Positions 40,404 to 62,275 of a DNA stretch of 64,000 bases are shown here, piece by piece. Where the stretch lies: the NCBI GenBank assembly GCA_016182655.1, contig JACPGB010000056.1, forward strand, positions 18,572-82,571. The letters run 5' to 3'. This stretch comes from Deltaproteobacteria bacterium (GTDB lineage: Bacteria > Desulfobacterota > GWC2-55-46). Positions within the stretch are counted from its first letter, which is position 1; each line of letters begins with the position of its first letter. The position numbers were made by a program, and so were the translations under genes. The notes under the pieces were generated by a model. It ran no database searches. It was not told the origin of the DNA and saw only the letters and a list, made by a program, of their open reading frames with translations.

Positions 40404-40417
40404 TATCGGCCCTCGTA

Positions 40418-40453: not shown

Positions 40454-40473
40454 CTTTTAAAACACATCCAATA

Positions 40474-43230: not shown

Positions 43231-44594
43231 TGAAAAAAAGCGCGAGAGAAAAGCGGCTCGCCGGGTTTGACAAGCGCCATGTCTGGCACCCGTTCACGCA
43301 GATGAGCGAGTGGGAGGCGGGAGACCCCCTCATAATCGAGAAGGGGCGCGGCAATTACCTTATCGACATAAACGGGAGGCGATACCTCGACGGCGTCTCA
43401 TCCCTCTGGGTAAACCTGCACGGCCACGAAAACAGGAAGATAGACTCCGCCATAAAAAAACAGCTCGGAAATATCGCCCACTCGACCCTGCTCGGGTTGT
43501 CGAATGTACCCTCGATTGAATTGGCCGAAAGGCTCGTTCGTATCGCGCCCAGGGGCCTCTCCCGGGTCTTCTACTCGGACAACGGCTCGACGGCCGTGGA
43601 AATTGCCCTCAAGATGGCCTTCCAATACTGGGAACAGGCGAAGAAGGATTTTAACCGCCGCAAGTTCATCGCCTTTACCGGCGCGTACCACGGCGACACC
43701 TTCGGCTCGATGTCCGTAGGAGAGATAGACATATTCGTAAAGAAGTACAAGCCGCTACTCTTCGGGACGCTCCGCGCGCCTTACCCCTACTGCTACAGGT
43801 GCCCTGTGGGCAAGGACAAGGCCGACTGCAAGACCGAGTGCCTGAAAGCATTTGAGGAGATCTTAAAAAAACACTCGCATGAAATCGCCGCGTGCGTAAT
43901 AGAGCCCGTCATACAGGGCGCGGCAGGGATGATCGTCTCTCCTCCGGGGTTCCTTAAAGGGGTGCGTAGGCTAACGAGAAAGTACGGAGTCCTCCTCATA
44001 GCCGACGAAGTCGCCGTCGGCTTCGGCAGGACCGGGAAGATGTTCGCGTGCGATACCGAAAACGTATCACCTGACTTCCTCTGCCTCGCCAAGGGCATAA
44101 CGGGCGGGTACATGCCTCTTGCGGCGACCCTTACGACAGAAAAAATATACAGGGCCTTTCTCGGAAGGTACGATGAATACAGGTCCTTTTTCCACGGCCA
44201 CACCTACACGGGAAACCCGCTCGGGTGCGCGGCGGCGATCGCGAACCTCGATATATTCGAGAGCGGGCGCGTGCTCGACAGGATGAAGCCGAAGACGATC
44301 CTTTTCGGAGAGATACTTAAAAAGTTCGAGGCGCTCGCCCATGTCGGCGATGTCAGGCATAAGGGGCTTGTCGCCGGGATAGAGCTTGTGAAGGATAGAA
44401 AAACGAAAGAGCCGTTCGCCTCCAGCGAGAGCACGGGCCACCGGGTTGCAATGGAAGCGCGCGAGCGCGGCCTCATCATAAGGCCGTTGGGCGATGTCGT
44501 CGTAATCATGCCGCCCTTGAGCATAACTGAAGCAGAGATAAAAAAGATGATGAAGACCGTATTCGACAGCGTCAGGAAGGTGACTGAAGAGTGA
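43230..44594 (+). CDS. bioA: Adenosylmethionine-8-amino-7-oxononanoate aminotransferase
   Basis: HVWHPFTQM, ...LLIADEVAVGFGRTGKMFA..., at full length (454 aa). Confidence 0.93.
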   Translation: MKKSAREKRLAGFDKRHVWHPFTQMSEWEAGDPLIIEKGRGNYLIDINGRRYLDGVSSLWVNLHGHENRKIDSAIKKQLGNIAHSTLLGLSNVPSIELAERLVRIAPRGLSRVFYSDNGSTAVEIALKMAFQYWEQAKKDFNRRKFIAFTGAYHGDTFGSMSVGEIDIFVKKYKPLLFGTLRAPYPYCYRCPVGKDKADCKTECLKAFEEILKKHSHEIAACVIEPVIQGAAGMIVSPPGFLKGVRRLTRKYGVLLIADEVAVGFGRTGKMFACDTENVSPDFLCLAKGITGGYMPLAATLTTEKIYRAFLGRYDEYRSFFHGHTYTGNPLGCAAAIANLDIFESGRVLDRMKPKTILFGEILKKFEALAHVGDVRHKGLVAGIELVKDRKTKEPFASSESTGHRVAMEARERGLIIRPLGDVVVIMPPLSITEAEIKKMMKTVFDSVRKVTEE

Positions 44595-45271
44595 TGGCGC
44601 GCGCCTTCTTCATAACCGGGACAGATACGAATGTCGGCAAGACCTTTGTCGCCGCGCTCATCGCGCGGGCCTTGAAGGCAAGAGGGATTGACATCGGCGT
44701 AATGAAGCCCGTTGAGACAGGTTGCGCGGTGAAAGACGGCGCGCTCGTGCCAATGGACGCAGTAGCGTTGAAAGAGGCGGCCGAGTCGAATGCACCCATC
44801 GACCTCATAAACCCTTACAGGTTCGCGCCTCCCCTTTCGCCGAATGTCGCGGCACGGCTTTCGGGCGTTGAGATAGACCTGGACAGAATAGAGTCTGCCT
44901 TCAAAACGCTCTCAGCCGTTCACGAAATAATCCTCGTCGAAGGCGCAGGAGGCCTCCTTGTCCCATTGAACAATGACTCCACTATGGCAGACCTCGCCCT
45001 TCGCCTTGGTTCACAGCTTTTGATAGTCACGCCTTCCCGTCTCGGCGTCATAAACCACGCGCTTTTGACTTGCGAATGTGCGAGGGCGCGAGGGCTCGAT
45101 CTGGCTGGCGTGATACTCAATCACCCGGCTAACCGATCAAACGACGCGAGCATAAAGTATAACCGTTCGGAAATAGAACGGTACGCGCCGGTGCTCGCCG
45201 AGATACCGTACACGCCCGCCGGAGGGACTTTGCCGGAACTCCCCGAGACCATGCTCAAGGTCTTTCAATAA
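44591..45271 (+). CDS. bioD: Dethiobiotin synthetase
   Basis: The P-loop is FFITGTDTNVGKTFV, followed by ILVEGAGGLLVP. The start is either the GTG at 44591 or the ATG at 44594. Confidence 0.9.
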   Translation: MMARAFFITGTDTNVGKTFVAALIARALKARGIDIGVMKPVETGCAVKDGALVPMDAVALKEAAESNAPIDLINPYRFAPPLSPNVAARLSGVEIDLDRIESAFKTLSAVHEIILVEGAGGLLVPLNNDSTMADLALRLGSQLLIVTPSRLGVINHALLTCECARARGLDLAGVILNHPANRSNDASIKYNRSEIERYAPVLAEIPYTPAGGTLPELPETMLKVFQ

Positions 45272-47912: not shown

Positions 47913-50144
47913 TTACGGCGCGCCTTCGGCTGTCCTCGCGTTGGTGATCCTTATCGCCGAGCTGTCGTAGAGCTTTTTAAAGATGGCGACGACCTTGGGG
48001 TCGAACTGGGTCCCCGAGCAGCGTTCCAGCTCGGCCATTATATCGGAGAGAGACCTCCCCTTCCTGTACGGCCTGTCGGCGGCCATGGCGTCCACGGTAT
48101 CGGCGACCGTAAGGACGCGGGCGAATAGCGGGATGTTTTCGCCCTTGAGGCCGTCCGGGTACCCGGTCCCATTATAGTACTCGTGGTGGTGTTTTATGGC
48201 GGGCCTTATGTTCTTGAGGAGCTTTATCGGCTCGAGTATCGCCGCGCCCTTGACCGGGTGCTCGCGCATTATTGACATCTCCTCGTCGGTCAGCCTGCCG
48301 GGCTTGTCGAGTATGGTCTCGTATGTGCCGAGCTTCCCGATGTCGTGGAGAAGCCCGGCGAGCTCGAGGTCTTTAAGTTCCTTCTGGGAAAACCCCATCT
48401 CGGCGCCTATCGCAAGGGCGTAAGATGTGACCCGCTCGGAATGTCCGGCCGTCCATGGGGACTTCGTGTCTATCGCCGAGGAGAGCGATTTGACGGTCCC
48501 GAGGAAGAGCTCCTGGAGGTCGGTGACGAGCCTCGCGTTCTCGAGCGCGATGCTTATCTGGGATGAGAGCTTCTCGAGCGTCTGGAGGTCCTCGGGCGTG
48601 AACGCGGCCTTTCTCTTGGAGCCTACGTTCAGAACGCCTATCACCTCGCCCTTCACGACAAGAGGCACCCTGATGTGTGAGAGGAAGCCCTCCCTCAGGA
48701 ACTTCTGCTCAAGCGGAAGGAGCGGGCCCGACTCCGAAAGGTCCGGGACATACTGGGGACGCCCCGTGAAGACGACATCCGAGGCATCGGTATCGCAGAA
48801 AAGGATCAACGCCCCCTTTTGTATGGAGGCGATGCCGAAGCCCGATGCATACTTGAACCCCTGGCTCTCCCTGTCAACGAGCGCGACGGTTGCCCTGTCA
48901 GTGGCTATCAGCCTCGATACCATCCTCACCGCGGTCTCGAGTATCTCGCCCGGCTCGAGTGTTGAGAGTATCGAGCGGTCTATCTCGCTCATCACCTGTA
49001 TCGTCTCTATCTTGTGGGAGAGCTCCATCGCCTTGTCGACGGAATAGCGGTGGAGGCGGGCCTGCTCGAGCGCGGTCGAGACCTGATGGGCGATCCCCTT
49101 CATGACGCGGATGTCCCTTTCGGTGAACTCCCGCTCTGTCAGATAAACGGAGACGATGAGCCCGAGGTTGTGCCCCGCGCTCATGAGCGGGACGACTGCG
49201 ACGGTCTTCGCGTCCTTTACCCATTTGAGCGGCAGGCCCTGTACCGCGCGAGTGCCCTGAGGCGTCACCGCGGCCACCGGCTCGCCGGTCTCTATAGCCG
49301 TCTTTACGATGCCCTCGGCCCCGCTCAACGGCTCGGTCCTGAAAAAAGGCAGGAACGCGCGGTCGAGCCCGTATTCCTGCGAAGGCCTGAACACCCCGGA
49401 GGACGGGTCCCATAGGTAAGCCAGGCAGACGTCCGAGCGCATTATCCGGCAGTTGCAATGCGCCACGTCCTCCATGAGCTTGTCCATGTCGGCCGTCCTG
49501 GCCGTCGCCTCGGCTATCATAAGGAGGTGCGCGGTCACCTCCATCTCCTCCTTTATGGCTTCCTCCGCCCTCTTGGCCTCGGTGATATCCTCCATCACAT
49601 GGACGGCGTCATAACCTTCGGTCTCCCCGCTCTTTATGGAGTAGAACCTTACCTTGAAGACCCTGCCACACTCCGGCACGGCGACCTCGGCCTCGACGTC
49701 GGCATCGGCGCCCTCCTCCTTTTTCTGCCTCTCCTTGAACGAGGCGCATACAAGGTGCGGTCCGCCTGTCCTGGGAAAGACCTCGAAATAGGGCCTCCCT
49801 ATAATTTCTTTAAAAGGCATGTTCGCTATCTTCTGGTAAGCGGCATTCGCCCTCACGATCCTGAATCCATCGTCATGGATGAAGAGCGGCGAGGAGATGG
49901 CGTCGAAGGTCGCCTCCCATTCCTTCTGGGCAGTCTCTATCCTCGAGGTAGACTCGTTGATGTCCTCGAGCATGTAGATGATAGCCTTCCTCTCGTCCTC
50001 GAGCTCGCCTTCGCGCTCCTCGAACTTGCGGAGCGCCTCCTTCAGGCGCGCGATCTCGGAATCCTTGAGCGAAATATCGCGCTTGAGGAGGCTGATCTCC
50101 TTTTCGCGTTCCTGCGGGTTTTTTTCCGCCGCGTCATCCGGCAT
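47913..50144 (-). CDS. PAS-GAF-GAF-HD-GYP multi-sensor c-di-GMP phosphodiesterase candidate
   Basis: N-terminal coiled coil and PAS, then two GAF-like regions. The HD-GYP motifs are GLLHDIGKLG and HHEYYNGTGYPDGL. The start lies 10 nt after the upstream stop. Confidence 0.88.
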   Translation of the reverse strand: MPDDAAEKNPQEREKEISLLKRDISLKDSEIARLKEALRKFEEREGELEDERKAIIYMLEDINESTSRIETAQKEWEATFDAISSPLFIHDDGFRIVRANAAYQKIANMPFKEIIGRPYFEVFPRTGGPHLVCASFKERQKKEEGADADVEAEVAVPECGRVFKVRFYSIKSGETEGYDAVHVMEDITEAKRAEEAIKEEMEVTAHLLMIAEATARTADMDKLMEDVAHCNCRIMRSDVCLAYLWDPSSGVFRPSQEYGLDRAFLPFFRTEPLSGAEGIVKTAIETGEPVAAVTPQGTRAVQGLPLKWVKDAKTVAVVPLMSAGHNLGLIVSVYLTEREFTERDIRVMKGIAHQVSTALEQARLHRYSVDKAMELSHKIETIQVMSEIDRSILSTLEPGEILETAVRMVSRLIATDRATVALVDRESQGFKYASGFGIASIQKGALILFCDTDASDVVFTGRPQYVPDLSESGPLLPLEQKFLREGFLSHIRVPLVVKGEVIGVLNVGSKRKAAFTPEDLQTLEKLSSQISIALENARLVTDLQELFLGTVKSLSSAIDTKSPWTAGHSERVTSYALAIGAEMGFSQKELKDLELAGLLHDIGKLGTYETILDKPGRLTDEEMSIMREHPVKGAAILEPIKLLKNIRPAIKHHHEYYNGTGYPDGLKGENIPLFARVLTVADTVDAMAADRPYRKGRSLSDIMAELERCSGTQFDPKVVAIFKKLYDSSAIRITNARTAEGAP

Positions 50145-50154
50145 GGTCTCACCT

Positions 50155-51528
50155 TTATGCAGAGCCGTTCAGGCCCTTGCCTTTAAGATCCCTCTCAAGC
50201 GCCTCTATCCTGTCCTTCAGTTCCCGGAGCCGGAGTTCCCGCTTGAGCGTCAGCTTCCTGAACATCTCGAGCTCCTCGATGCGCTCCTTAAGCAAATCTT
50301 CGGACCTCTTCCTTTCGGTTACGTCTCGGGCTATGGAGAGGGCCATGGGAGCGCCCTTGAGCTCGAATACCCTTGTGCTTATCTCGACAGGTATCTCTCT
50401 GCCGTCCTTGGCGACATGGACCATCTCGAATACGGCGTGCCCCTCCTCGACGATGCCCTTTGCCGCGGCTTTTTGGGCCGCCTCGTGGCCCGGCGCGTCT
50501 ATGAGCAACGGAGACAGTCCCAGGAGCTCCTTGCGCGAGTACCCGAGCCTCCGGCAGGCGGCATCGTTCACGTCAATGAACCTGAAGGAGAGATCGTCCT
50601 TGCCCGGGACCGGATGCAGGAAAATGGCGTCGTTCGTCCCGTTAAAGAGGGTCCTGTAGCGCTCCTCCTTGTCCTTCATCTCCGAGTAGGCGTGGTTCAA
50701 CTCCCTCGTCCTCTCCTCGACCTTGCGCTCGAGGTCGCGGTACAGGGCAGAGAGCTCGGAGGACATCCTGTCCATCGCCTCCGAGAGGTCTTCGAGCTCA
50801 TCATTGGTCCTTAACCCGGCCTTTGACGCAAAGTCCCCGGAGGCTATCTTAAGGGAGTGCTCACGGAGGCGCTCTATGGGCGTTACAAAGACGCCCGAAT
50901 AGTAATACGCGAGGAACATGGTCAGGAGCGCGGTAGCCGCCACGCCCCCGCCCGTTATGAACCATGCGTTCCGCCACGCGGCCTCGGCATTTCGAAAGGC
51001 CTCGGCGTACTCCCTCTCGTCTATCCCGCGCCACCTGTCGAGGAGGGCGATGGCGTTGGAGCCCCACTTGTAATCCATCTCCTCCATGAGTTCGGCGGCG
51101 CCCCTGTTGCCAACGGGCTTTTGTATGGAGAATATCCTCGCTGAAATATCCCTTACGCTCCCCCAGGACTCTTTTAATTCCTTCAATATCCTTTTTTCTT
51201 CAGCCACGGTCTCGCCCGCGATTTCAAAGCCGTCGTGGATCGAATCGGCCTCCTTGAGCAGACGCTCCATCTCCTCCGAGTATTTCCTGAACTCGACCGC
51301 GTATCCGCCCTTGCCGGTTATGATGTAATCGTTCGAAGGCATGATCGCCCTGTCGAGCGCCTGCTGGAGATCGCTGACGAGCGCCGATTCGCGCGAGACG
51401 GCGTTCACCCTGACGGTTGCATTGTAGATCGACCTCTGGTTGTAGAGGCTTAAAACCGCGAGCGCGGCGAGCGGGATGAGCGCGAGCGACATTTTCTTGA
51501 GGAGCCTTGTCCTTATCCTCGAGCCCAT
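50155..51528 (-). CDS. Membrane sensor: CHASE3-like periplasmic domain, HAMP, PAS and a coiled-coil tail, with no catalytic output domain
   Basis: TM1 is LALIPLAALAVLSLYN, the sensor motif is AIMPSNDYIITG, and a TM2 follows. HAMP is TPIERLREHSLKIASGDFASKAGLRTNDELEDLSEAMDRM. PAS is EERYRTLFNGTNDAIFL... The tail is IEELEMFRKLTLKRELRLRELKDRIEALE. Confidence 0.85.
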   Translation of the reverse strand: MGSRIRTRLLKKMSLALIPLAALAVLSLYNQRSIYNATVRVNAVSRESALVSDLQQALDRAIMPSNDYIITGKGGYAVEFRKYSEEMERLLKEADSIHDGFEIAGETVAEEKRILKELKESWGSVRDISARIFSIQKPVGNRGAAELMEEMDYKWGSNAIALLDRWRGIDEREYAEAFRNAEAAWRNAWFITGGGVAATALLTMFLAYYYSGVFVTPIERLREHSLKIASGDFASKAGLRTNDELEDLSEAMDRMSSELSALYRDLERKVEERTRELNHAYSEMKDKEERYRTLFNGTNDAIFLHPVPGKDDLSFRFIDVNDAACRRLGYSRKELLGLSPLLIDAPGHEAAQKAAAKGIVEEGHAVFEMVHVAKDGREIPVEISTRVFELKGAPMALSIARDVTERKRSEDLLKERIEELEMFRKLTLKRELRLRELKDRIEALERDLKGKGLNGSA

Positions 51529-51529
51529 G

Positions 51530-52672
51530 CTATCTCCTCTTTTCGAGCTTTTCGATCTTTTCGCGGAGCTCTTTCATCCTGAGCTCCCGTTTTATCGTCG
51601 CACTTTTGAACCTCTCGAGCTCCTCTATCTTCTGCCGGAGCCTCTCCTCGGCGGCCTTGCGGGCGGATATGTCCCTGATGATGCCGGTAGAGTGCCACTT
51701 GCCCTTTATGTTCATGGCGGATATCGAGAGCTCGACCGGGAACTCGGTCCCGTCCTTGTTCAGGCCAGATAGTTCTAACGATTTGCCTACTATCGGCCCG
51801 GTCCCGGTCTGCATGAATCCGTTAAAAGCCGCCTTCGCCCTTTCCCTTAACTTCTCCGGCACTATGTAGTCGTGCATGTCCCTGCCTATTATCTCGGAGG
51901 CCTCAAAGCCGAACATCTCCTCGGCCTTCCTGTTCCAGAGGTACACGAGCCCGCGCTCGTCCACGCAGACGATCGCGTCGCTCGCGGTGTCGACCACCGA
52001 GCGGAACCTCTCTTCGTTCTCCTTTAGCGCGGTCTCGGCCTTTTTCCTGTCCGTCACCTCATTGGTGAGCTCGGCGGTCCTCTGCCGCACCTTCTCCTCG
52101 AGGAGGTCGTTCAAGGATTTGAGCTCCTCCTGCGCCCTGTTGAGATCCCTGTTCTGGAGTATCGCGTTCTCGTAGGTGCTGAGCAGAAGGTTCAGCGTCT
52201 GTCCCCTCCCCGATTGTATGGAGTACGCCTTGCCGTTGTACAGGACCTCGACCGACCTGTCCTCGCGGTTGTTCCTGCACTGCACCGGGGTATCGATGAG
52301 GGCCGCTATCCTATTAAGTAGGTAGCCCGGGTCGTAAGGCTTGATGACATAATTGTCGGCCCCCGCGTTCAAACCCTTTATGATGTCCTCGGTCTCCACA
52401 AGGGTGGTAAGGAGTATGAACGGGATATCTCTCAATGCTTCGTCGTTCTTTACGCGCTTGCACATCTCGTACCCGTCCATGACGGGCATGATTATGTCGC
52501 TGATGACGGCGACGGGCATCCTCTCCCTTATGGCATCGAGCCCCTCGGCGCCGTTCCCGGCCACCCTTGCCGAATAACCGTTTTCGAGGAGGAGTTTTTT
52601 GAGCATGAACGCCTGTACGTCACTGTCCTCTACTATGAGGACCTCTTTTTTATCCGCGGTTTCTTCCGTCAT
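51530..52672 (-). CDS. Response regulator: REC, coiled coil, PAS and a coiled-coil tail, with no catalytic or DNA-binding output
   Basis: REC is VLIVEDSDVQAFMLKKLL...VISDIIMPVMDGYEMCKRVK...PFILLTT. PAS is EERFRSVVDTASDAIVCVD... The tail is IEELERFKSATIKRELRMKELREKIEKLE. The stop is 1 nt from the next start. Confidence 0.85.
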   Translation of the reverse strand: MTEETADKKEVLIVEDSDVQAFMLKKLLLENGYSARVAGNGAEGLDAIRERMPVAVISDIIMPVMDGYEMCKRVKNDEALRDIPFILLTTLVETEDIIKGLNAGADNYVIKPYDPGYLLNRIAALIDTPVQCRNNREDRSVEVLYNGKAYSIQSGRGQTLNLLLSTYENAILQNRDLNRAQEELKSLNDLLEEKVRQRTAELTNEVTDRKKAETALKENEERFRSVVDTASDAIVCVDERGLVYLWNRKAEEMFGFEASEIIGRDMHDYIVPEKLRERAKAAFNGFMQTGTGPIVGKSLELSGLNKDGTEFPVELSISAMNIKGKWHSTGIIRDISARKAAEERLRQKIEELERFKSATIKRELRMKELREKIEKLEKRR

Positions 52673-52685
52673 GACTGCCTTTCTC

Positions 52686-53753
52686 TCAAGATACCCTGGA
52701 GAGTATCGAATGTGATATCTCGTATAACGGAAGGACCTCGGAGGCCCCGCCGAGCTCTATGGCCCTTCTGGGCATGCTGAATATTACGCTCGTAGCCTCG
52801 TCCTGGGCAATGGTGCCGCCCCCGGCCGAGGCAATCGAGCGCATGCCCTCGGCCCCGTCGGACCCCATGCCGGTCAGCAACACGCCGAGGACCCCTCCTC
52901 CGTAATATTCCGCGAGCGAGTTGAAGGTCACGGTAATGGAGGGCCTGTGCGGGTTGAAAGGCTCACGGGAGTATGCGAACCTGCCATCTTTGCCGACTAT
53001 GAGATGATAGCCCTCCTCCGGGAAATAGACGCGTCCGGGAACGGGCCTCTCTCCCTCGACGGCCTTGCGCACTTCGAGCGCGCAGGACCCTTTCAGCCAT
53101 TCCATGAGCCCGGCGAGGAAGCCGTCGCTTATGTGCTGGACGCACACGACCGGGACCGGGAAGTCGCGGGGCAGTCCCGATAGTATGAGGGAAAGGGCCT
53201 GCGGGCCGCCGGTCGAGGCCCCTATGGCGACTATCTCGGGCCTCCGTGAGCCGGGCCTCGATGCCGGGTTGGGCATCCTCCCGGGTCCGGGCCGCCTCGC
53301 GAACCTCCTGAATACATGCACCCCCGAAAGGACCCTTATTCTGCTCAAAAACTCGTCGGCGTGCGCCTTGAAGCCCGCCTCCATCTCTCCCCTGGGCTTC
53401 GAGAAGAGGTCCACCGCTCCGGCCTCTATGAGCTTGAAAGCGTTCTCTGACGACCTTTCGACGGATACGGACACGACGAGTATCGGCTTCGGGAACTTCT
53501 CCATCACCTGCCGCGTGAACTCCAGCCCGTCCATCTCCGGCATGTGAAGGTCGGTGCAGATCACATCCGGGTCTATCGAGGCGAGTTTTTCCAACGCCTC
53601 CTTCGCGGACCTGAACTCGGAGGCGACATCGATATCCGGGGACGAGGAGATTATCCTTTTCATGACGGCGAGCGCAAGCGGGGAGTCGTCTATGAGGAGG
53701 ACCCTTATCTTCTTGTTGTTATTTCCGTTGCTGATCATGATGCCCCTATCCAC
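52686..53753 (-). CDS. cheB: Chemotaxis response regulator protein-glutamate methylesterase
   Basis: REC is IRVLLIDDSPLALAVMKRII...DLHMPEMDG. The methylesterase motifs are IVAIGASTGGPQAL, VQHISDGF and LLTGMGSDGAEG. Confidence 0.9.
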   Translation of the reverse strand: MDRGIMISNGNNNKKIRVLLIDDSPLALAVMKRIISSSPDIDVASEFRSAKEALEKLASIDPDVICTDLHMPEMDGLEFTRQVMEKFPKPILVVSVSVERSSENAFKLIEAGAVDLFSKPRGEMEAGFKAHADEFLSRIRVLSGVHVFRRFARRPGPGRMPNPASRPGSRRPEIVAIGASTGGPQALSLILSGLPRDFPVPVVCVQHISDGFLAGLMEWLKGSCALEVRKAVEGERPVPGRVYFPEEGYHLIVGKDGRFAYSREPFNPHRPSITVTFNSLAEYYGGGVLGVLLTGMGSDGAEGMRSIASAGGGTIAQDEATSVIFSMPRRAIELGGASEVLPLYEISHSILSRVS

Positions 53754-53761
53754 CCCATGGG

Positions 53762-56011
53762 TCAGACGAGCCTGCCGAGCGTTTCAAGGAATACCTTCTG
53801 GTCGAAGGCCGGTTTAGCAAGGTACGCGTTCGCCCCGGCGTCGAGCCCGCGCTTCCTGTCGTCCTCTGACGACAGGGTGGTCACGAGTATGATGGGAAGC
53901 TCATTAAGCCTCTTGTCCTGCCGTATCCGGGCCGTTAGCGCGAGTCCGTCCATGTTCGGCATCATTATGTCCGAGACTACGGCGTCGAATGAGCGGGAGG
54001 AGAGCTTCTGGAGCGCGTCAAGCCCGTCGACCGCCGTCGTGACCTCGTAGCCGCCGCCTTCGAGGATGCGTTTTTCCTGCGTCCTCGTCGTTATGGAGTC
54101 CTCGACGAGGAGGACCGATTTTTTGCGCCCCTTCGCACGCGGCCCTGGCGCGGACGGATGCGCGGCCGCGCCCGGCTTCTTGAGGGTTTTCAGCATGTCG
54201 GCCGGGTTCAGTACCATCGCGACCTCGCCGCCTCCGAGGATCGTCGCCCCAGAGACATTCCGCACCCTTTTAAGGAGCGCGCTCTGCGGCTTCAATACGA
54301 CCTCCTCCTCGTCCAATAGACCGTCGACTACGACTCCGAATCTCTCGTCGTTCGACTGCATGAACACGCAGGCGAGCCCTTCCTTGTCCTTGCCTTTTTC
54401 GCTTCCGGGGCCGTCTTCATCGAGCCCGAGGACGGCTGAGAGCCGTGCCACCGTTACAGGGACCCCGTCGAGGAGGGCCGACTCCCTCCCCTCGACAGGG
54501 AAGACCTCTCCCGGCCTCAAGACCCTGCTCGAATGCACGGACTCTACCGGTATCGCGTACTTCCTCCCATTAAGAAGAGCTATTATTACTCTGGCCGTGG
54601 CAAGCGCCACCGGAAGAGTTATAATGGTCCTCATCCCCTTGCCGGGCTCGGACTCCACGCGGACAGCGCCCTTGAGCCTCTCGACATTCACCCTTACGAT
54701 ATCGAGGCCGACCCCCCTGCCGGAAGTCTCGGTCACTGCCCAGCTCGTGGTAAGCCCCGGGGCGAATATGAGTGAGCGCGCCTCGGCCTGCGTCATTGCC
54801 TGGACCTCTTGCTCCGCGACGAGCCCCATTTTTAACGCGGCCCTTTTGACCGCCTCTTCGTCAAGGCCCCTGCCGTCGTCCGAGACCTCGATGACTATGT
54901 TGGACTCGTTACGCAAGGCGCTTAAGGAGACCGTCCCTGTCGCAGGTTTCCCAGCCCTCTCGCGCTCGACAGCCCCCTCTATCCCGTGGTCTATCGAGTT
55001 CCTTATGGTGTGCATGAGCGGGTCCTTCATCTCTTCTATGACGCGCTTGTCCGCCCTTACATCGTTGCCCTCGACGAGAAACCTCACTTCCTTGCCCCTT
55101 TCGCGGGCAAGGTCCCGTATCATGCGGGGAAAGAGGTTGAAGAGCGTCGATAAAGGCAGTAGCCGCGCTTCCCCTATGCTCTCTCCCATCGAGCCCGAAA
55201 TGGACGAAAGGCGCGCCTCGTCGTCGTAGAGCGATGACCGGAGCCTCTCCAGGCCCGAGGAAAACGCCTGAAGCCCTTCGCTGAGGCGGCCGTCCGTTGA
55301 TACGGCGCGCCGCAACCGTTTTGAGAGCTCCTCCCACGAGTCGAAGAGCGTGTCGGCTTCCGATAACCTCTGTGACAGCCTTGTCCTCATGACGGCGAGC
55401 TCGCCGGCCCCTGTCATGAGCTCGTCGAGCTTTTTCGTCTCGATCCGTATGGTGTCTATCCTGTAACCCCCGTGCGCGTGAAGGCGGTCTTTGAGGCCTT
55501 CACCGTCGGCGGCGCCGGCCCCCTCGGAAGGATCCCCCGTCGGAGCCGCCCGGCTCACGCCGGCTTCGGAAGGACCCGCGCCTATTGCGCCGCGGTCCGC
55601 GGGCGGCTCTGCGCCTCCCCGCACGACGGCGCCCTTCTCGCCGGTGTCGAGGAGCCTTATTATATCGGTGACGACTACCCCGGCCTTTTCGCCGGTAGTC
55701 GCCTCTTTTACGAGCGAGCGCACGGCGTCTATCGCCCCGTATATGCGGTCTGCCAGCCCTGGAAAGAACTCCTTCTCGCCTTTCTTTACCGCGCCGAGGA
55801 TGTCCTCGACCCTGTGGGCGATGAGTTCTATGTCCTTGACGCCGACCATCCTCGCCGCGCCTTTGAGGCTGTGCGCATCCCTGAACGCCTCCTCCATGAT
55901 GGGTGAGTCCCCCGGCGTCTTTTCGAGCGCGAGCACGCCCCTCTCAAGATTTGAAAGGTGCTCTTCGCTCTCGGCCTTGAACAGGTCGCGCAGTTCCCTG
56001 TCTTCTATCAT
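53762..56011 (-). CDS. cheA: Hybrid chemotaxis histidine kinase CheA with a C-terminal receiver domain
   Basis: Hpt is FRDAHSLKGAARMVG and HATPase is IEVSDDGRGLD. A CheW-like domain follows, then the C-terminal REC VLLVEDSITTRTQEKRIL...VSDIMMPNMDGLALTARIR. Confidence 0.9.
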   Translation of the reverse strand: MIEDRELRDLFKAESEEHLSNLERGVLALEKTPGDSPIMEEAFRDAHSLKGAARMVGVKDIELIAHRVEDILGAVKKGEKEFFPGLADRIYGAIDAVRSLVKEATTGEKAGVVVTDIIRLLDTGEKGAVVRGGAEPPADRGAIGAGPSEAGVSRAAPTGDPSEGAGAADGEGLKDRLHAHGGYRIDTIRIETKKLDELMTGAGELAVMRTRLSQRLSEADTLFDSWEELSKRLRRAVSTDGRLSEGLQAFSSGLERLRSSLYDDEARLSSISGSMGESIGEARLLPLSTLFNLFPRMIRDLARERGKEVRFLVEGNDVRADKRVIEEMKDPLMHTIRNSIDHGIEGAVERERAGKPATGTVSLSALRNESNIVIEVSDDGRGLDEEAVKRAALKMGLVAEQEVQAMTQAEARSLIFAPGLTTSWAVTETSGRGVGLDIVRVNVERLKGAVRVESEPGKGMRTIITLPVALATARVIIALLNGRKYAIPVESVHSSRVLRPGEVFPVEGRESALLDGVPVTVARLSAVLGLDEDGPGSEKGKDKEGLACVFMQSNDERFGVVVDGLLDEEEVVLKPQSALLKRVRNVSGATILGGGEVAMVLNPADMLKTLKKPGAAAHPSAPGPRAKGRKKSVLLVEDSITTRTQEKRILEGGGYEVTTAVDGLDALQKLSSRSFDAVVSDIMMPNMDGLALTARIRQDKRLNELPIILVTTLSSEDDRKRGLDAGANAYLAKPAFDQKVFLETLGRLV

Positions 56012-56046
56012 AAGCGCGGTACTTCGGGCTGATTAAAGCGCCCGTC

Positions 56047-57492
56047 CTATACCATCTCGTTAAGGGCCTTTGCCCTCTCGTTTATCCTGTCTATCCCTAC
56101 CTTTGTCTGGGCTATGCCTGCGGCGGTCTCCTTCGAGCCGGCCGTTATGGCGTTCATCGCCTCCATGACCTGTTTTATCGCCGCGGCCTGCTGTGCTATG
56201 TTGAGCGAGATCTGCCTGAAGTTGTCGAACGCCCCGGTTATGGAGGCGTTCACGCCGCTGAAGGCCTCTGTCGTCCTCTCGGCGAGCCGGGCGCCTTCCT
56301 CCACGGTCTTGGCGCCTTCCTCGGTCGCCATTATCACGGCGTTCGTCGCCTTCTGTATGTCGGTCACAATATTGTTCACCCGCTCGGCGGATTTCCTCGC
56401 CTGGTCGGCGAGCTTCCTCACCTCCTGGGCTATGACATTGAAGCCCTTGCCGTGCTCTCCGGCCCTTACGGCCTCCACGGCCGCGTTCAGTGCGAGCATG
56501 TTTATCTGAGACGATATGTCGGTGACGAGGTTGGCTATCGCCCCTATCTGGGCCGTCTGCTCGCTCAACTTGAGTATCTCCCCGGCGATAGTCCCCGACC
56601 TTTCCTTTATCGTCGCCATCCCGTCTATAGTCTGCTCCACGGTCTTCAATCCCTCTTCCGCCAGAGAGAGCGCGTGCTTCGCCCCATCGGTGGCCGTCTC
56701 CGACTGCTCGGAGACCTTTCTGGAAGATGCCCCGAGCTCGTTCATCGTGGCGGCCGTCTCGGTGACCGATGCCGACTGCGCCGTGGCGGTCCTCTCGTGC
56801 TCGGCGACGGTCGAGGCTATCTCGGATGTGGCCGCCGAGACCGCGTTGGTGGACTCCTTGACCGACCTCGAAATCCACGAGGATACGAAAAGCGCCCCTG
56901 CTATCGCAAGCCCTATGGAGACGAGCGTTCCGGCTATTACCGCCGTGTAGAGCACCCTGGTGGCCGAGACCGCCGCATCCTCCATCTTCGCGAATATTTC
57001 CCCCTGATATTTCCGAATGTCATTCAATATCGGCTTTATCTCGCCCCAGATGGAGTGCGCCTCCTTCACGACCGGGGCCACCGCATCCGTAGTTTTGCCC
57101 CTGTCAGCGAGATCTATCACCTTTGACCCGAGCCCGTAATACTCCCTGCCGAGCGCCACGAGTTTCGCGAGGCGCTCCTTCTGGACCGGGTCGGTTATCG
57201 CTTCGGCCTTTCTCGCGACCTCCTCGAAGTTTCTCTTTCCGTTTTCAAAGGTCGCCTTAACGGAGGGGTCGCGCATTATGACATACCCCCTCGCCGACCT
57301 GACCATCTCGTTCATCGAGTCGTTAAGGTCGTTCACCATGCCGACCTCCCGCGCCGTCTCTATCATGCCTTCGACGGAGCTCGATACCTGGCGCGCCGTA
57401 ACGAGCACGATGATTGTCACTATTACGAAAAGCGCCGCACCGATGAGGTTCCCGAGGAGCATCCCCGTCCTGACCTTCATGCTTCCGCGCAT
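56047..57492 (-). CDS. Methyl-accepting chemotaxis protein with a CHASE3-like periplasmic domain
   Basis: Two TM segments. The sensor motif is [14 protein letters not shown]. The signalling hairpin is [36 protein letters not shown] saw no clear HAMP after TM2. Confidence 0.9.
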
Positions 57493-57514
57493 ATGATCCG
57501 TCTCCTTTTCATGT

Positions 57515-58513
57515 CTACACGGCCTCGTCGACGGAAAGGCCGCCTTTCGTGAGCATCCTTTTGAGGTCTATAACCGCGAGGACACCGTCGTTCCGCCTCG
57601 CCGCGCCCAGCATGTACTCCTCTTCCGCCGGTTTCGGAGAGAGCGGGGTGGATACGATCTCCTCAGGGCTCAAATAGACTATCTCCTCTATGGAGTCGGC
57701 AAGCACCCCGGCCCTTACGCCGCCGGCCTCCGCGACTACTACCTTTGAGCCGGGCCCGGGAACCGCCGGGGACATGCCAAGCGGCCCTCTTATGTCGATG
57801 ACGGTCAAGATGTCCCCCCGAAGATTCGTGTCTCCAAGTATGTGCGCCGGCGTGCACGGGACCGGCGTAATATCTTTCAGGTCCGCGAACTCCCGGATGC
57901 TTTCGCACCCTATGGCGAAGCTCTCGCTTCCGAGCGCGATCACCGCAAAGGGCGTTCCCCCTTTGCCGGGCCCGTCTGACGGCTCCATCAACCGCCTTGC
58001 CCTGTCTTTGAGGACCGACTTTTCCTCCTGTGACGCCTCGGGCCAGAACGCACGCAGGCCTTCCGCATTTACTTCCGGGCCTGTCCGGCGATCGATCAGG
58101 GCCTTAAGGTCCAGAAGCATCACTATGTCCCCGCCGCGCTTCGCCTCGCCCTCTATGAAGCGGTGGAGACCGCCTTCCTTCTGGATGGGTGAAAGCCCTT
58201 CGATCGCGGCCAGGGATATTTCCTCCACGGAGAGGATCTCGTTCGCTATTATCCCCAGCTCCGGGCCTTCCTCGACGATTATCACCGAGTCATCGACCGA
58301 ATACCCGTTGGAGGGGTGAGCGAACCTCATCTTCAGGTCCATGACCGGGATGATCGAGCCGCGAAGGTTGAAAAAACCGGGGATATAAAAAGGCGACTCC
58401 TCTATGGGGGTAAGCTCAGGGAGCTTGAGCATCTCCCTGACGCTTGCCGCCCGCACCCCGTAGAGCGAGCCCGAGAGACTGAATACCACAAAAGACGTGT
58501 CGGTATTTTCCAT
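57515..58513 (-). CDS. cheW: Tandem CheW-CheW coupling protein
   Basis: There are two CheW-like domains: [31 protein letters not shown]...[13 protein letters not shown] and [31 protein letters not shown]...[13 protein letters not shown]. The ATG at 58513 lies 8 nt after the cheR stop. The 80 extra codons in the track ORF overlap cheR. Confidence 0.85.
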
Positions 58514-58521
58514 AGGGCCCT

Positions 58522-59943
58522 CTATTTCTTCCTGCCTTCGGCCATCTTTCTGAGGTAGCCGGAGAGCTCCCCGGCATTGGTCCGTCCGTAATGCTCTATG
58601 GGCTCGTCCTGCGGCATGGAGGATAGGATCGAGAGCGCGCCGTCCCTCATCCTCTCCGCTCTCTCGATGAGCCCCTCGCTGTCGTAGATGGAGGCGAGCT
58701 CGAGATAGGCCGGAACGAAGGACGGGTTCAGATATATGGCCTTCTTGAGCCACTTCTTCGCGTCCTCGATCTCCCCGCTCTCCTCGGATATCCTGGCGAG
58801 TAGTAAATACGGCTCGATCGAGAGTTTGTCCGCGTCCAACGCCTTAAGGAGGCACTCGGAGGCCTTTTTGAGCTCCCCGGCGTCGGCGTATATGGAGGCG
58901 GCAAGGATCAGCGGCGCGGCATCGCCGGCTCCTTCGGCGCTCCGTACGGCTGACGGAGCGCGCATCCTCCCGTGGCGGGCCTTGGGCTTTGCCGCCGGGC
59001 CCGCAGGTAGTGAATGAATAAAAGGGATATCAGGCCTTAAGGCCATGTCCGCGTCATCTTCAAGGGACGCCTTTTGAAAGGCGCTCGATCCGGTGAAGGT
59101 CACGGTATTCAAGCCATTGACCTCGATGCCGCTCAGCTCTCCGTGGCCGGTGATGAGATACCCTCCCGGCGCGAGGGCCGATGCGAGCCTCCCGGCTATC
59201 TCGGAGACCGCCTTTCTCTTGTAATATATGAAGACATTCCTGCAGAGTATGAGGTCCATGCCGCCGGGGAGGCCGTCTCCCATGAGGTCGGCCTTTCTGA
59301 ACTCCACCATCTGCCTGATAGACGGGTCGACCTCCCGGTACGAGCCCGTTCTCCGGAACCAGGCACCCGTCTCATCCGGCTTCACCATGCGAAAGGACCA
59401 TTCACTGTAGAGACCCCTCCGTGCCTTTTCCAGGAGGTCGTCCCTTATATCGGTGCCGAGTATCGTGATATCCCAGGACTTGTAATCCGGCAGGGCCTCC
59501 CTTACGAGTATCGCAAGTGAATAAGGCTCCTCCCCGGAGGAACAGCCTGCGCTCCAGAGACTCAGGCGCTTTTCAGCGCGTCTTTTTTCTATTATCACGG
59601 GGAGTATGTTTGAACGGATGGTATCGAACTGCCCCTTGTCCCTGAAAAAAAAAGACTCGGGGACCGAAAGCAGGGCCTTCAAGGCCTCCGATTCCTTCCG
59701 GTCGAAAAGGGGGGAGCGGATAAGGCTCAGGTAATCCTCTACGGAGCGGCTTAAGTGCTTCGCCCTGACTGATGCGGCTTTCAAGAGGTCAGGGTAATCT
59801 TCAGGCCGGATGAGCAACCCTGTGGCCGCCGATACATCCGATATGAGTTTCAGCCTTTTTCCGTCCATTTCGAAGGTAAATGGGGCACTGCGCCATGTCC
59901 CATCCTCGTTTGAACCGGTCTCGCAGGATGCCGTTCCGCGCAT
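58522..59943 (-). CDS. cheR: CheR-type MCP methyltransferase with C-terminal TPR repeats
   Basis: FFRDKGQFD, LSLWSAGCSSGEEPYSLAIL and ILGTDI, then a roughly 130-aa TPR-like tail. An alternative start is at 59868. Confidence 0.85.
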   Translation of the reverse strand: MRGTASCETGSNEDGTWRSAPFTFEMDGKRLKLISDVSAATGLLIRPEDYPDLLKAASVRAKHLSRSVEDYLSLIRSPLFDRKESEALKALLSVPESFFFRDKGQFDTIRSNILPVIIEKRRAEKRLSLWSAGCSSGEEPYSLAILVREALPDYKSWDITILGTDIRDDLLEKARRGLYSEWSFRMVKPDETGAWFRRTGSYREVDPSIRQMVEFRKADLMGDGLPGGMDLILCRNVFIYYKRKAVSEIAGRLASALAPGGYLITGHGELSGIEVNGLNTVTFTGSSAFQKASLEDDADMALRPDIPFIHSLPAGPAAKPKARHGRMRAPSAVRSAEGAGDAAPLILAASIYADAGELKKASECLLKALDADKLSIEPYLLLARISEESGEIEDAKKWLKKAIYLNPSFVPAYLELASIYDSEGLIERAERMRDGALSILSSMPQDEPIEHYGRTNAGELSGYLRKMAEGRKK

Positions 59944-60120
59944 CCTGTCTCTTAGGCCCCGCCATCAGGGCCCTTTACGCCTGAAAGACGCCTTAAAGCA
60001 ATGTTTACAATAGTAATATCCTAAAACCCGTTTCACGTCAAGGCCTTATAGAGAGCATGTAAATCACGGATTGAGGCGGGTGATTTAAATATTTTAAATG
60101 GAGGATTGAGAGCCCGCGCC

Positions 60121-61443
60121 TCAGGCGCGCTCGGCCCGGTTCCTGCCCGCCTCCTTGGCCCTGTAAAGCGCGCCGTCCGCTTTTTTCACAAGCTCCGTGG
60201 GCGTAACGGCGTCCTCGGGGTATGAGGCTACCCCGAAACTCATGGTAAGGTCCCCTCCGGGCTGTTCCGATTCGTGCGGGAAGACCCTGTCCTTGACCAT
60301 CGCCCTGATCCTCTCGGCGAGAGAATGCGCCTCGTCTTTCCCGGTCTCCGGCAGTATTATCGAGAACTCCTCGCCCCCGTACCTCGCGAGCACGTCCTGG
60401 CCCCTTATGCCTTCCTTTAAACACGCGGACACTTCCGACAGGACCGCGTCTCCGGCCGGATGGCCGTTAAGGTCGTTATACTCCTTGAAATGGTCTATGT
60501 CGGACATTATGAGCGAGAGCCTTTTGCCGTACCGCTCGGCCCTCTTCAACTCCTCTTCAAGCCTCCCGGCGAAGTGCCTGTGATTATACGCGCCTGTAAG
60601 CCCGTCGGTTATGGAGAGCTCCTGCAGGCGTTCGTTGGCTTCATGAAGCTCCTTAGTCCTCTCGGCTATCTTTTTCTCAAGCTCCGCGTATGATTCCCCG
60701 AGCCTGCCCGCCATGCGGTTGAACTCCTCGGCGAGGAGGTTCATCTCGATCCCGTCCTTTATATCGACCCTGTGGTCGAGGTCGCCCTTGCCTATTATCG
60801 CCGCGCCTCTGGTGAGCTCATCTATTGGCCGGAGGATCGAGCGGAAGAGGTATAGAGCCACCATGGCGATGGCGATAAAAGACAGGAACGCGATGGTAAA
60901 GAGTATCGCGTCGACCTTGTGCCTCAAGGACGAGGCGGCATCCACCCTTGAGGACATCTCCTCCCTCTTCCCGAGATACACCCTGTCGAGGTGGTTGACA
61001 ATGATGTCGAGGGCGAGAGCGTCTATCTCCTCCATCTGAGCCGCCCTGCGCCCGTTACGCGCGGCCAGGGGGCTTGAGAAGATATTCATCGACTTCCGTT
61101 TAAGTACCTCGAACTTCCTTTCGGCCTCTCCTATCTCGCCGTCATACATGCCCGCGTCCTTAAGACGCTTGAACCTCTCCTCCACTTCCTTAACGAGATC
61201 GGCGAACCTCTCCTTCTCGGCCGGGTCGCCGGAGATGATATAGTCGTTCGCCGGCATCACGGCCATGTCAAGGGAGAGCTTCAGGTCGGAGATGTTTTTA
61301 AGCTCGCGGGAGGCGGTCTCCACTTCCATCATGCCGTCGTAGAGGAGATTCCTGTTATAAAGGGAGAGCAGTCCGAGAAATGAGAGCAGGGCGAAGACGA
61401 GGGAGAAGCTTGAGACTATCTTGGTCCTTAACGAAATGGCCAT
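60121..61443 (-). CDS. Membrane sensor diguanylate cyclase: CHASE3-like domain, HAMP and GGDEF
   Basis: TM1 is LLSFLGLLSLYN and the sensor motif is AVMPANDYIISG. HAMP is RPIDELTRGAAIIGKGDLDHRV. The cyclase motifs are DGLTGAYNHRHF and RGQDVLARYGGEEF, which include an RxxD I-site. Confidence 0.9.
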   Translation of the reverse strand: MAISLRTKIVSSFSLVFALLSFLGLLSLYNRNLLYDGMMEVETASRELKNISDLKLSLDMAVMPANDYIISGDPAEKERFADLVKEVEERFKRLKDAGMYDGEIGEAERKFEVLKRKSMNIFSSPLAARNGRRAAQMEEIDALALDIIVNHLDRVYLGKREEMSSRVDAASSLRHKVDAILFTIAFLSFIAIAMVALYLFRSILRPIDELTRGAAIIGKGDLDHRVDIKDGIEMNLLAEEFNRMAGRLGESYAELEKKIAERTKELHEANERLQELSITDGLTGAYNHRHFAGRLEEELKRAERYGKRLSLIMSDIDHFKEYNDLNGHPAGDAVLSEVSACLKEGIRGQDVLARYGGEEFSIILPETGKDEAHSLAERIRAMVKDRVFPHESEQPGGDLTMSFGVASYPEDAVTPTELVKKADGALYRAKEAGRNRAERA

Positions 61444-61582
61444 GAAAGGCCCCTGGTGAGTTGATTTTACCGACCAACGCCATGATAGCAGATTTCAGAT
61501 GTGGAATGAAAGGGAGATTTCAAAAAAATGGATGTTATCACGGAATGTTTACGAGGAAAGAAGGTCTAAGGAACGGCGTGGG

Positions 61583-62275
61583 TTATCTGCCGTTGAGGAC
61601 CGAGGAGACCGGCAGGGGCTCCGTAAGCTCAATGCCGGCGATTACCGTGCCTTCCGCGGAGCGGGACCATTTGACGCGCCCGGTCCTTTTAAGGTCGAGT
61701 CCCTTGATATAGACCCCGGCGGCCGCATCCGCGCCCTTCGGATCTCCAAGGTACTTTAGTTTGAGCCCGTTTTCAGAGATATCGAGGACCCGGGCCGAAA
61801 ACCTCCCTTCGGGACCTCCGAACTCGACAGTGCAGTCGGCGACGAAAGCGAACCTCTCGCGCCTCCTCTTAAGCGGCCCCCCAGAGTCGGAAAAGGCGGA
61901 CGGCTCAAGGCAGGCGTCTACCGCGTCGAGGAACTCCTTTACCTTGAAGGGCTTGGCTATCACCCTCTTGCCGAGCCCTTTCAGGACCGGCCCTTCCGTG
62001 CCTTCGGCCACGTCGCCCGTCATGAAGAAAAACCTGTCTTTCAGGTACGGAAACTCTCGCAATACCGAAAGAAATAGCCCGATGCCGTCAAGGAGCGGCA
62101 TATTTACGTCGGATATGACGAGGTCGTAGGCCGACGCGCCGAGACGCTCGATAGCCGCCATCCCGTTCGCGGCGGTGTCTACCGTATAGCCCCTGTTGGC
62201 GAGTAGCTCTATGCAACATTCGCGGATGAGCTCGTCGTCGTCCACGACCAGTATTTTCTTGGACCTTATTGCCAT
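61583..62275 (-). CDS. Response regulator with a C-terminal PilZ domain (REC-PilZ)
   Basis: REC is ILVVDDDELIRECCIELL...VISDVNMPLLDGIGLF. The PilZ motifs are RRRER (RxxxR) and DISENG (DxSxxG). Confidence 0.8.
   Translation of the reverse strand: MAIRSKKILVVDDDELIRECCIELLANRGYTVDTAANGMAAIERLGASAYDLVISDVNMPLLDGIGLFLSVLREFPYLKDRFFFMTGDVAEGTEGPVLKGLGKRVIAKPFKVKEFLDAVDACLEPSAFSDSGGPLKRRRERFAFVADCTVEFGGPEGRFSARVLDISENGLKLKYLGDPKGADAAAGVYIKGLDLKRTGRVKWSRSAEGTVIAGIELTEPLPVSSVLNGR

Follow-up and report, generated by a model that had tools for sequence, protein, structure and literature searches.

A chemosensory gene block predicted to act on a separately encoded HD-GYP phosphodiesterase in an uncultured deltaproteobacterium

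The only well-studied chemosensory routes to cyclic di-GMP (c-di-GMP) are the Wsp pathway, which drives synthesis through a REC-GGDEF regulator, and the pilus-type pathway (PMC8846402). CheR-TPR fusions, CheA-REC hybrids, in which the kinase carries a receiver domain (REC), and a multidomain regulator encoded after cheB are hallmarks tied to the alternative-cellular-function (ACF) type of pathway, and a 2012 catalogue already includes regulators of the REC-PAS and REC-HDc kinds from CheR-TPR clusters, the REC-HDc protein of Desulfatibacillum alkenivorans being listed in Table S2 of that survey (PMC3447774). In the Che3 system of R. centenum, CheA3-REC phosphorylates REC1 of the REC-REC-PAS-HWE kinase CheS3, as shown experimentally (PMC3868531). 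Here we describe a block of eight chemosensory and signaling genes, with two further genes upstream, in a 64,000-nucleotide stretch (the window) of contig JACPGB010000056.1 from Deltaproteobacteria bacterium assembly GCA_016182655.1, in which the regulator encoded after cheB stops at a PAS domain and an HD-GYP phosphodiesterase is encoded as a separate protein.

By the literature criteria, the cluster is best read as an ACF-type pathway. Taken as a whole, it seems somewhat probable from the sequence comparisons that CheA of this pathway phosphorylates the REC-PAS regulator, which in turn controls c-di-GMP breakdown by the HD-GYP enzyme in trans. Taken part by part, phosphorylation of REC-PAS by CheA is very likely and control of the HD-GYP enzyme by the pathway is probable, while direct contact between a tail helix and an N-terminal helix as the means of that control is a tentative proposal to which we give less than even credence. 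In this scheme the transmembrane receptor would set CheA autophosphorylation via the CheW-CheW protein, CheR-TPR and CheB would provide adaptation, and CheA would pass phosphate to the REC-PAS receiver, its own receiver probably acting as a phosphate sink. REC-PAS, having no enzyme of its own, would have its effect in trans, on the PAS-GAF-GAF-HD-GYP phosphodiesterase whose gene lies two positions downstream (the sign of this regulation being a prediction), and HAMP-PAS, with the same PAS-tail module, would be a second and parallel input to that enzyme. The likely contact would pair the basic C-terminal helices of REC-PAS and HAMP-PAS with the acidic helix at the N-terminus of the HD-GYP enzyme, and the HAMP-GGDEF cyclase, whose sensor is paralogous to that of HAMP-PAS, and REC-PilZ would supply and read the c-di-GMP pool. 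The ten genes are as follows.

61583-62275, minus strand: REC-PilZ, candidate c-di-GMP receptor with a phosphorylatable receiver (Pfam Response_reg and PilZ)
60121-61443, minus strand: transmembrane (TM) sensor-HAMP-GGDEF diguanylate cyclase (Pfam HAMP and GGDEF)
58522-59943, minus strand: CheR-TPR (Pfam CheR and several TPR families)
57515-58513, minus strand: CheW-CheW fusion with two CheW-like domains (Pfam CheW, two stretches)
56047-57492, minus strand: transmembrane methyl-accepting chemotaxis protein (MCP) with a CHASE3/4HB-like sensor and no HAMP (Pfam MCPsignal and CHASE3)
53762-56011, minus strand: CheA with a C-terminal REC (Hpt, dimerization, HATPase, CheW-like and REC domains; Pfam)
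52686-53753, minus strand: CheB methylesterase with a receiver domain (Pfam and NCBIfam)
51530-52672, minus strand: REC-coiled coil-PAS response regulator with no enzymatic domain (Pfam)
50155-51528, minus strand: TM-sensor-HAMP-PAS protein with no enzymatic domain (Pfam HAMP and PAS)
47913-50144, minus strand: coiled coil-PAS-GAF-GAF-HD-GYP phosphodiesterase (HD_5/HD; Pfam)

A first-pass annotation of the window had counted nine genes between 47913 and 59943; there are eight, as its own list of names implies. Its domain architectures for the che, REC-PAS, HAMP-PAS and HD-GYP genes are borne out by the list of open reading frames (ORFs) and the Pfam scan, as are its gaps of no more than 35 nt (1–35 nt measured inside the block) and the placing of the HAMP-GGDEF gene 177 nt upstream of the block and of REC-PilZ 139 nt further. 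It was likewise right that a stand-alone CheY is absent, the window's REC domains being four only (CheA, CheB, REC-PAS and REC-PilZ), and that there are no flagellar, pilus or CheZ genes among the window's other large ORFs by Pfam, ORFs below about 150 aa being scanned in part. The ACF hallmarks it had pointed to are present (CheR-TPR, CheA-REC and a multidomain REC-PAS regulator instead of a single-domain CheY), and REC-PAS occupies the position of WspR after cheB, with a receiver and without an enzymatic domain.

The likeness to Wsp and Frz proposed in the same annotation holds as an analogy, but the cluster has no REC-GGDEF, no FrzZ and no cytoplasmic FrzCD-type receptor. As in Wsp, CheR-TPR corresponds to WspC, the CheW domains (fused in the window) to WspB and WspD, and CheA-REC to WspE, CheB is followed by the output regulator as the last gene, and the output is related to c-di-GMP (PMC8846402, PMC3447774). 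The window regulator differs from WspR in having REC and PAS but no GGDEF, while the nearby cyclase has HAMP but no receiver, and the predicted effect, reaching a separate protein in trans, is on hydrolysis by an HD-GYP enzyme rather than on synthesis. The receptor also departs from that of Wsp in that its sensor is CHASE3-like, HAMP is missing and the signaling bundle is very short, and the Wsp gene order (MCP-CheW-CheR-CheW-CheA/REC-CheB-regulator) agrees with that of the window in the last three positions only; locus L252, described below, has a Wsp-like order, unlike the window. Compared with Frz, the window receptor has two TM segments, whereas FrzCD is cytoplasmic, and there is no dual-receiver protein like FrzZ.

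The Che3 system shares with the window a CheA-REC hybrid and a REC-PAS signaling protein in the che cluster; the window REC-PAS aligns with REC-PAS-kinases over the receiver, linker and PAS, and the nearest relatives of the window che core carry REC-(PAS/GAF)-histidine-kinase genes after cheB. However, the window REC-PAS stops after PAS and a tail helix, with no HisKA/HATPase and no stand-alone CheY, and the likely effector in the window is a phosphodiesterase. Across the broader family to which this che core belongs, the gene after cheB usually encodes a REC-(PAS/GAF)-kinase; a REC-(PAS/GAF)-HisKA-HATPase regulator follows the che genes in L091, L094-L096, L098, L107 and L008. This fits both the 2012 survey of CheR-TPR clusters (PMC3447774) and the Che3 cascade (PMC3868531). 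The alignment-based genome scan was swamped by the generic receiver pattern, and is informative only for these REC-kinase outputs in the wider che family.

The first-pass annotation did not recognize the architecture as described, and this stands in part. Since regulators of both kinds, REC-PAS and REC-HDc, had been listed for CheR-TPR clusters in 2012, the window adds a variant to a class already known. No description was found of the split form, in which an output-less REC-PAS and a paralogous membrane input accompany a stand-alone GAF-HD-GYP enzyme; it appears to be new to the literature, as do the paired helix motifs discussed below. The window architecture is described neither in the paper on Geobacter che clusters (PMC2577667) nor in the survey of Campylobacterota signaling.

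Distant homologues of REC-PAS end in an enzyme, either HD-GYP or HisKA-HATPase, and the two HD-GYP fusions that were located both lie directly after cheB. At P0100/L252 the order is CheW, CheR-TPR, CheW, a 493-aa gene lacking annotation at the place of the receptor, CheA-REC, CheB and REC-PAS-HD_5, and at P0074 it is receptors, CheR, CheB and then REC-PAS-HD_5; the two fusion proteins are 38–39% identical to the window REC-PAS in the alignment and 40% and 45% identical by BLASTP. Position, REC-linker-PAS module and enzyme family are thus the same as in the window, but the fusions are single chains, whereas the window has separate genes with HAMP-PAS inserted between them and an enzyme with its own N-helix-PAS-GAF-GAF sensor region. 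We found no experimental study of the fused or the split form in the literature. These cheB-adjacent fusions are the strongest single argument that the window REC-PAS and HD-GYP proteins would share one signal path.

A second line of evidence comes from relatives that have lost the che genes. The closest relative in the genome collection, L001, which is a sister of L081, has the order PmbA, REC-PilZ, GGDEF, a 657-bp gap, REC-PAS, HAMP-PAS, HD-GYP and aconitase. In the gap (9333-9988, against window 59713-59906), about 60 codons for the N-terminal domain of CheR remain, in frame, as a stub that matches window 59771-59906 at 76.6% identity over a 141-bp blastn segment, and a promoter-like element upstream of cheR is retained:

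60013-60041, minus strand: promoter-like element TTGACG-N17-TATTAC upstream of cheR (aligned in the window, L081 and L001)

The element was missed by the consensus scanner and is conserved in all three genomes. From the stub and the retained element it follows that about 7 kb, from cheR codon ~78 through cheB, has been deleted in L001, where the element would, with low confidence, drive REC-PAS, HAMP-PAS and HD-GYP. An assembly artefact is an unlikely source of this deletion, the stub being in frame, diverged and flanked by conserved sequence. L086, a more distant syntenic relative, is likewise without che genes, its cheR stub being faint at best (no tblastn match, resemblance in the alignment only), and in both genomes the downstream REC-PAS, HAMP-PAS and HD-GYP genes are intact. 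The REC-PAS receivers of four relatives compare as follows.

L001, che deleted: E12G and a 4-residue insertion; identity to the window 61% in REC and 84% in PAS
L081, che present: quintet intact; 76% in REC and 82% in PAS
L086, che absent: D13G, T87D and K109M; 39% in REC and 69% in PAS
L083, che present: quintet intact; 55% in REC and 58% in PAS

The receiver quintet is intact in all six che-linked orthologues and is changed in exactly L001 and L086, while the PAS and tail stay conserved. Decay of the receiver only where che has been lost would be expected with CheA as the phosphate donor and with a PAS-tail that serves the remaining genes, and the pattern is suggestive support for a link from CheA to REC-PAS.

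REC-PAS might instead be a phosphate sink or feedback element like an auxiliary CheY, the real output being the CheA receiver or REC-PilZ, which we regard as highly improbable. REC-PAS does lack an effector domain, the receiver closest to its own is that of CheA itself (39% identity), the receiver and PilZ motifs of REC-PilZ are intact, and phosphate-sink receivers are documented for CheA-REC hybrids (PMC3868531). However, a sink needs none of the conserved parts beyond the receiver: the AlphaFold2 model of REC-PAS (pLDDT 82.7) has REC at 10-127, a beta meander at 132-153, a 74-residue helix before the PAS (156-229), the PAS at 233-334 and a free 44-residue C-terminal helix (336-379), and the long helix, PAS and tail are conserved even after receiver decay. 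Moreover, REC-PilZ is absent from the L171, L002 and L083 clusters as far as they are sequenced, its receiver is kept where che is lost, and relatives fuse the same REC-PAS to enzymes. A fold search with the model returned separate receiver and FixL PAS matches only, with no structural match to the beta-meander linker or to the architecture as a whole; the PAS is FixL-like (8e-20), but a heme-binding PAS was rejected as the proximal His is replaced by Ala. The segment between receiver and long helix (residues 128-175, …EVLYNGKAYSIQSGRGQTLNLLLSTYENA…) is a conserved stretch of about 45 residues in which G147, Q158, L163, Y167 and E168 are invariant, kinase- and HD-GYP-fused relatives included; it is modeled with low confidence as the small beta meander and has no Pfam or PDB match.

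The relatives are all uncultured, most of them 'Deltaproteobacteria bacterium' metagenome-assembled genomes (MAGs) from groundwater and sediment, and REC-PAS comes after cheB in eight lineages. The arrangements are as follows.

L081, L082, L090, L172 and L173 (GWB2_55_19-like): full block, syntenic, 80% identical
L083 (56%), L171 (53%, PAS-PAS instead of HAMP-PAS) and L203: full block, different flanks
L002, a Thermodesulfovibrionia MAG: full block in another phylum, the REC protein being 256 aa with no Pfam PAS match
L170: rearranged to REC-PAS, HD-GYP, HAMP-PAS, GGDEF, then PilZ, with HD-GYP and HAMP-PAS swapped
L087: che genes and REC-PAS, no HD-GYP nearby
L084/85, L088 and L089: orphan REC-PAS

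Conservation of gene order in related genomes, proposed with the first-pass annotation as a check, is therefore found: che-REC-PAS-(X-PAS)-HD-GYP recurs in at least seven lineages of two phyla, with differing flanks and one rearrangement, so that conservation goes beyond simple synteny, and REC-PAS is not tied to the block in every genome. Flagellar or type IV pilus genes were not found among the large ORFs of the 64-kb window; the homologous L170 cluster lies about 7 kb from fliS and fliD. Beside the rearranged cluster, L170 15918-21194 holds genes for a GGDEF protein, a PilZ-only protein, a REC-GAF-HD-GYP protein and a small REC protein, together with fliS and fliD; at least one carrier is thus flagellated.

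HAMP-PAS, with two TM segments, is related to two of its neighbors. Residues 252-446 are homologous to REC-PAS 177-378 (34% identity, E=5e-26), including a near-identical C-terminal helix, and residues 1-286 to the sensor of the cyclase (residues 1-275; 29% identity, E=1e-23); since both homologies are found, the protein is a mosaic of the cyclase sensor and the REC-PAS output module. A linear relay from REC-PAS through HAMP-PAS to HD-GYP, as first proposed, is not indicated, as the PAS-tail module is common to the two proteins, which look like inputs in parallel. The helices concerned are as follows.

51533-51652, minus strand: tail helix of REC-PAS (…EELERFKSATIKRELRMKELREKIEKLEKRR), strongly basic with a net charge of +6, common to HAMP-PAS
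50158-50301, minus strand: tail helix of HAMP-PAS (…EELEMFRKLTLKRELRLRELKDRIEALERDL…), common to REC-PAS
49920-50099, minus strand: acidic helix at the N-terminus of the HD-GYP protein, conserved, with ERKAIIYMLEDINES at its end, net charge about -6

The tail has the consensus ELERFxKxTVxRELRMxELKxxIxxLE and lies 11–27 residues from the C-terminus in all 59 ORFs having it in a regex scan of the fetched loci. In L174-L177 it stands directly after HAMP with the PAS missing (TM-HAMP-tail), and the tail is therefore the constant element of the partner proteins. Identity to the window tails is 71–89% in HD-GYP-linked lineages versus 26–45% in orphans, the exceptions among the HD-GYP-linked lineages being L170 (42%) and L171 (34%). 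On the side of the enzyme, the N-terminal helix ending R.A...MLED.N is kept in all HD-GYP orthologues, PAS-less ones included, and the motif stands at residues 21-79 in 37 of the 38 ORFs having it. The charges are complementary, with +4 to +8 for REC-PAS-type tails against about -4 to -6 for the enzyme N-helices. A metagenome scan with the window HD-GYP protein returned about 40 full-length orthologues, most of them with a HAMP-PAS homologue immediately upstream, and at 21 metagenome loci a tail-ending gene lies within 3 kb upstream of an HD-GYP gene with the N-motif. In L182, L184, L185 and L187 an ORF ending …NWQSRFYDHIIRNEK…NPANLFM, which may be an IS200/RayT-type transposase from its resemblance, is inserted between the tail gene and the HD-GYP gene.

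Several observations weigh against the proposed pathway. The fused relatives join PAS straight to HD-GYP, without the N-helix, PAS or GAF of the window enzyme, and the receiver-decay argument consists of two genomes. Tail and N-motif never stand in one chain (0 ORFs with both among 59 tail ORFs and 38 N-motif ORFs in all fetched loci, by regex), and no tail precedes the single internal N-motif, in the archaeal kinase of L049. The tail is also common in PAS proteins that do not adjoin any HD-GYP, and may be a general dimerization helix or a binder of something else. As the relatives are all MAGs or metagenome contigs, genes beyond the contigs are out of view. Further, L087 has che genes and REC-PAS with no HD-GYP nearby, REC-PAS is an orphan in L084/85, L088 and L089, and many HD-GYP orthologues (indeed most) are paired only with a HAMP-(PAS)-tail partner, with no REC-PAS or che genes, so that a two-gene module of sensor and enzyme works without chemosensory input. 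These last points would equally be explained by two separate neighboring modules, che acting on REC-PAS with a target possibly elsewhere and an independent pair of HAMP-PAS and HD-GYP, with co-transcription reflecting shared regulation or descent; the intact c-di-GMP genes after che loss in L001 and L086 agree with this, as do the tail proteins that adjoin histidine kinases in Bacteroidota, so that the tail is not HD-GYP-specific. We nonetheless judge this unlikely, because REC-PAS is fused to HD-GYP directly after cheB in related clusters, because the block is found again in two phyla and between different flanks, with REC-PAS adjoining HD-GYP even where the order is rearranged, and because REC-PAS and HAMP-PAS have the same tail subtype in HD-GYP-linked lineages, L170 and L171 excepted. 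The proposal of a chemosensory pathway setting c-di-GMP turnover is thus supported for the HD-GYP link, through block conservation, cheB-adjacent fusions and receiver decay, and more loosely for the cyclase and REC-PilZ.

The tail extends well beyond these clusters. A profile built from the two window tails and searched against 1.84 billion representatives at E<=0.001 matches 5303 protein clusters (50% identity clusters), and in 119 of the 125 best matches of at least 150 aa the match ends no more than 30 residues from the C-terminus. The best-scoring proteins join PAS to receiver, HAMP, GAF or Cache inputs; in the 80 top matches Pfam finds PAS in 76, receiver in 13, GAF in 8 and HAMP in 6, and kinase, cyclase, phosphodiesterase, DNA-binding and MCP outputs are not among the 25 most frequent families of these 80. 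No Pfam family covers the motif, and nothing relevant on it was found in the literature. The tail was also compared with a degenerate DHp helix of histidine kinases (F-x6-RELR versus F-x5-HELR), and this was rejected at an hhalign probability of 0.2–2.5% for 42 tails against 17 HisKA regions. In Bacteroidota, the genes at L040 8924-15102 and L080 11760-18217 run from one for a MEDS-domain protein, through those for a PAS-PAS-tail and then a solute-binding-PAS-PAS-tail protein, to a histidine kinase gene; the kinase and the tail protein before it have the same solute-binding sensor, which parallels the window in placing an output-less sensor beside an enzyme with a paralogous sensor.

A more doubtful proposal than the helix contact in the window itself is that the tail is a portable docking element, defining a large undescribed class of input-only sensors that plug in trans into separate enzymes. 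In such proteins PAS would follow a receiver, HAMP, Cache or solute-binding input, and no output would be present; they would pair, as a hetero-coiled coil, with the helix at the N-terminus of the enzyme, an HD-GYP here and a histidine kinase in Bacteroidota. If this were true, the window operon would be its clearest case, with one enzyme shared by a chemosensory pathway and a membrane sensor as interchangeable inputs, and a proposed role would follow for the many proteins whose sole annotation is 'PAS domain S-box protein'.

The HD-GYP and GGDEF enzymes both look active from their motifs. Compared with 4mcw and 5z7c, the HD-GYP protein conserves GHSERV, HDIGK, HP, HHEYYNGTGYP and ADTVDA (HD_5 Pfam 3.4e-40). 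Like PmGH of Persephonella marina (4mcw) it has GAF followed by HD-GYP, with the metal-binding and GYP motifs conserved, but it adds the conserved N-terminal helix, a PAS and a second GAF; unlike RpfG it has no receiver of its own, and it differs from both in being consistently encoded after a tail-bearing partner. Its substrate is very probably c-di-GMP. Hydrolysis of 3'3'-cGAMP or another cyclic dinucleotide within the same wiring is very improbable, although the closest solved structure, and thus a point against our reading, is the cGAMP-specific Vibrio phosphodiesterase V-cGAP3 (5z7c, 1e-45); the c-di-GMP enzyme PmGH, of the same GAF-HD-GYP architecture, matches nearly as well (6.5e-41), the neighboring cyclase has a canonical GGEEF and N-D pair, a PilZ receptor is encoded alongside, and GGDEF and PilZ genes recur in L170. 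In L082 (12929-14876, GCA_003455015.1) the HD-GYP gene is called as two genes of 76 aa and 560 aa, whereas the near-identical L081 has one 741-aa gene, and either a frameshift or an assembly error may be responsible.

The cyclase has a GGEEF active site preceded by five residues by an RGQD I-site (…IRGQDVLARYGGEEF…; GGDEF Pfam 2.7e-49), and a cGAMP-making Hypr GGDEF was rejected from its canonical N-D pair, with Asp at the specificity position. REC-PilZ has the binding motifs RRRERF and DISENG (PilZ 2.8e-7, above the Pfam cut-off) and the receiver residues DD/D/T/K. It adjoins the cyclase in L001 and L086, and in both its receiver has stayed intact despite the loss of che, which makes this CheA an improbable donor for it. 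As parts of the pathway, both genes go with the block in L170 and the syntenic lineage, whereas in L171, L002 and L083 they are missing over the reach of the contigs, and their link to the che block therefore appears weaker than that of HD-GYP.

Chemosensory arrays with adaptation machinery may thus also be wired to c-di-GMP degradation via HD-GYP enzymes. The regulation of HD-GYP proteins is poorly understood, and the split form, in which input and enzyme are separate, is a natural system for asking how partner proteins regulate them, with natural controls in che-deleted, membrane-input-only and single-chain-fusion lineages. All of the carriers being uncultured groundwater or sediment bacteria, tests need heterologous expression.

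The che core proteins have the residues expected for function. All four window receivers keep the acidic pocket, Thr/Ser and Lys. CheA has H47 in HSLKG and intact receiver residues, with no P2 domain detected by Pfam. The catalytic triad of CheB (GASTGG, H and D) is intact, and the protein passes the NCBIfam CheB model with 346 bits against a cut-off of 342; NCBIfam matches for CheA, CheB and CheR are generic only. The two TM segments of the MCP span about 9-33 and 181-206; HAMP is absent and the signaling bundle is short, with its hairpin tip at E346 and arms of about 139 and 135 residues, or about 19–20 heptads. The longest cheWW ORF (to 58753) overlaps cheR, and homologues support a start at MENTD (58513); full-length CheW-CheW homologues are present in L081, L002, L087, L170 and L171. 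The cheR gene may start at 59868 rather than 59943, at a second ATG that is the start annotated in L081.

No terminator was found inside the block in a scan for promoters and terminators whose numbers were not above shuffled expectation; the scan is consistent with one transcription unit and otherwise uninformative. The block is flanked by a PmbA/TldD protease gene and aconitase, and the window's other large ORFs include, by Pfam, those for polysaccharide export and biosynthesis, a biotin operon, RtcB, phosphoglycerate mutase, a GGDEF protein and a GAF-PAS protein. The last two lie about 30 kb from the cluster: the GGDEF protein (18718-20007, 429 aa) has an N-terminal region without a Pfam match, and the GAF-PAS protein (21033-22094) has no output domain. 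The biotin operon (39330-45271), convergent to aconitase, looks complete with BioB, BioF, a BioH-like hydrolase, a BioC-like methyltransferase, BioA and BioD, and is syntenic in L081 and L086. Two YceI-like genes in tandem come after a cytochrome b561 gene at 16383-18108.

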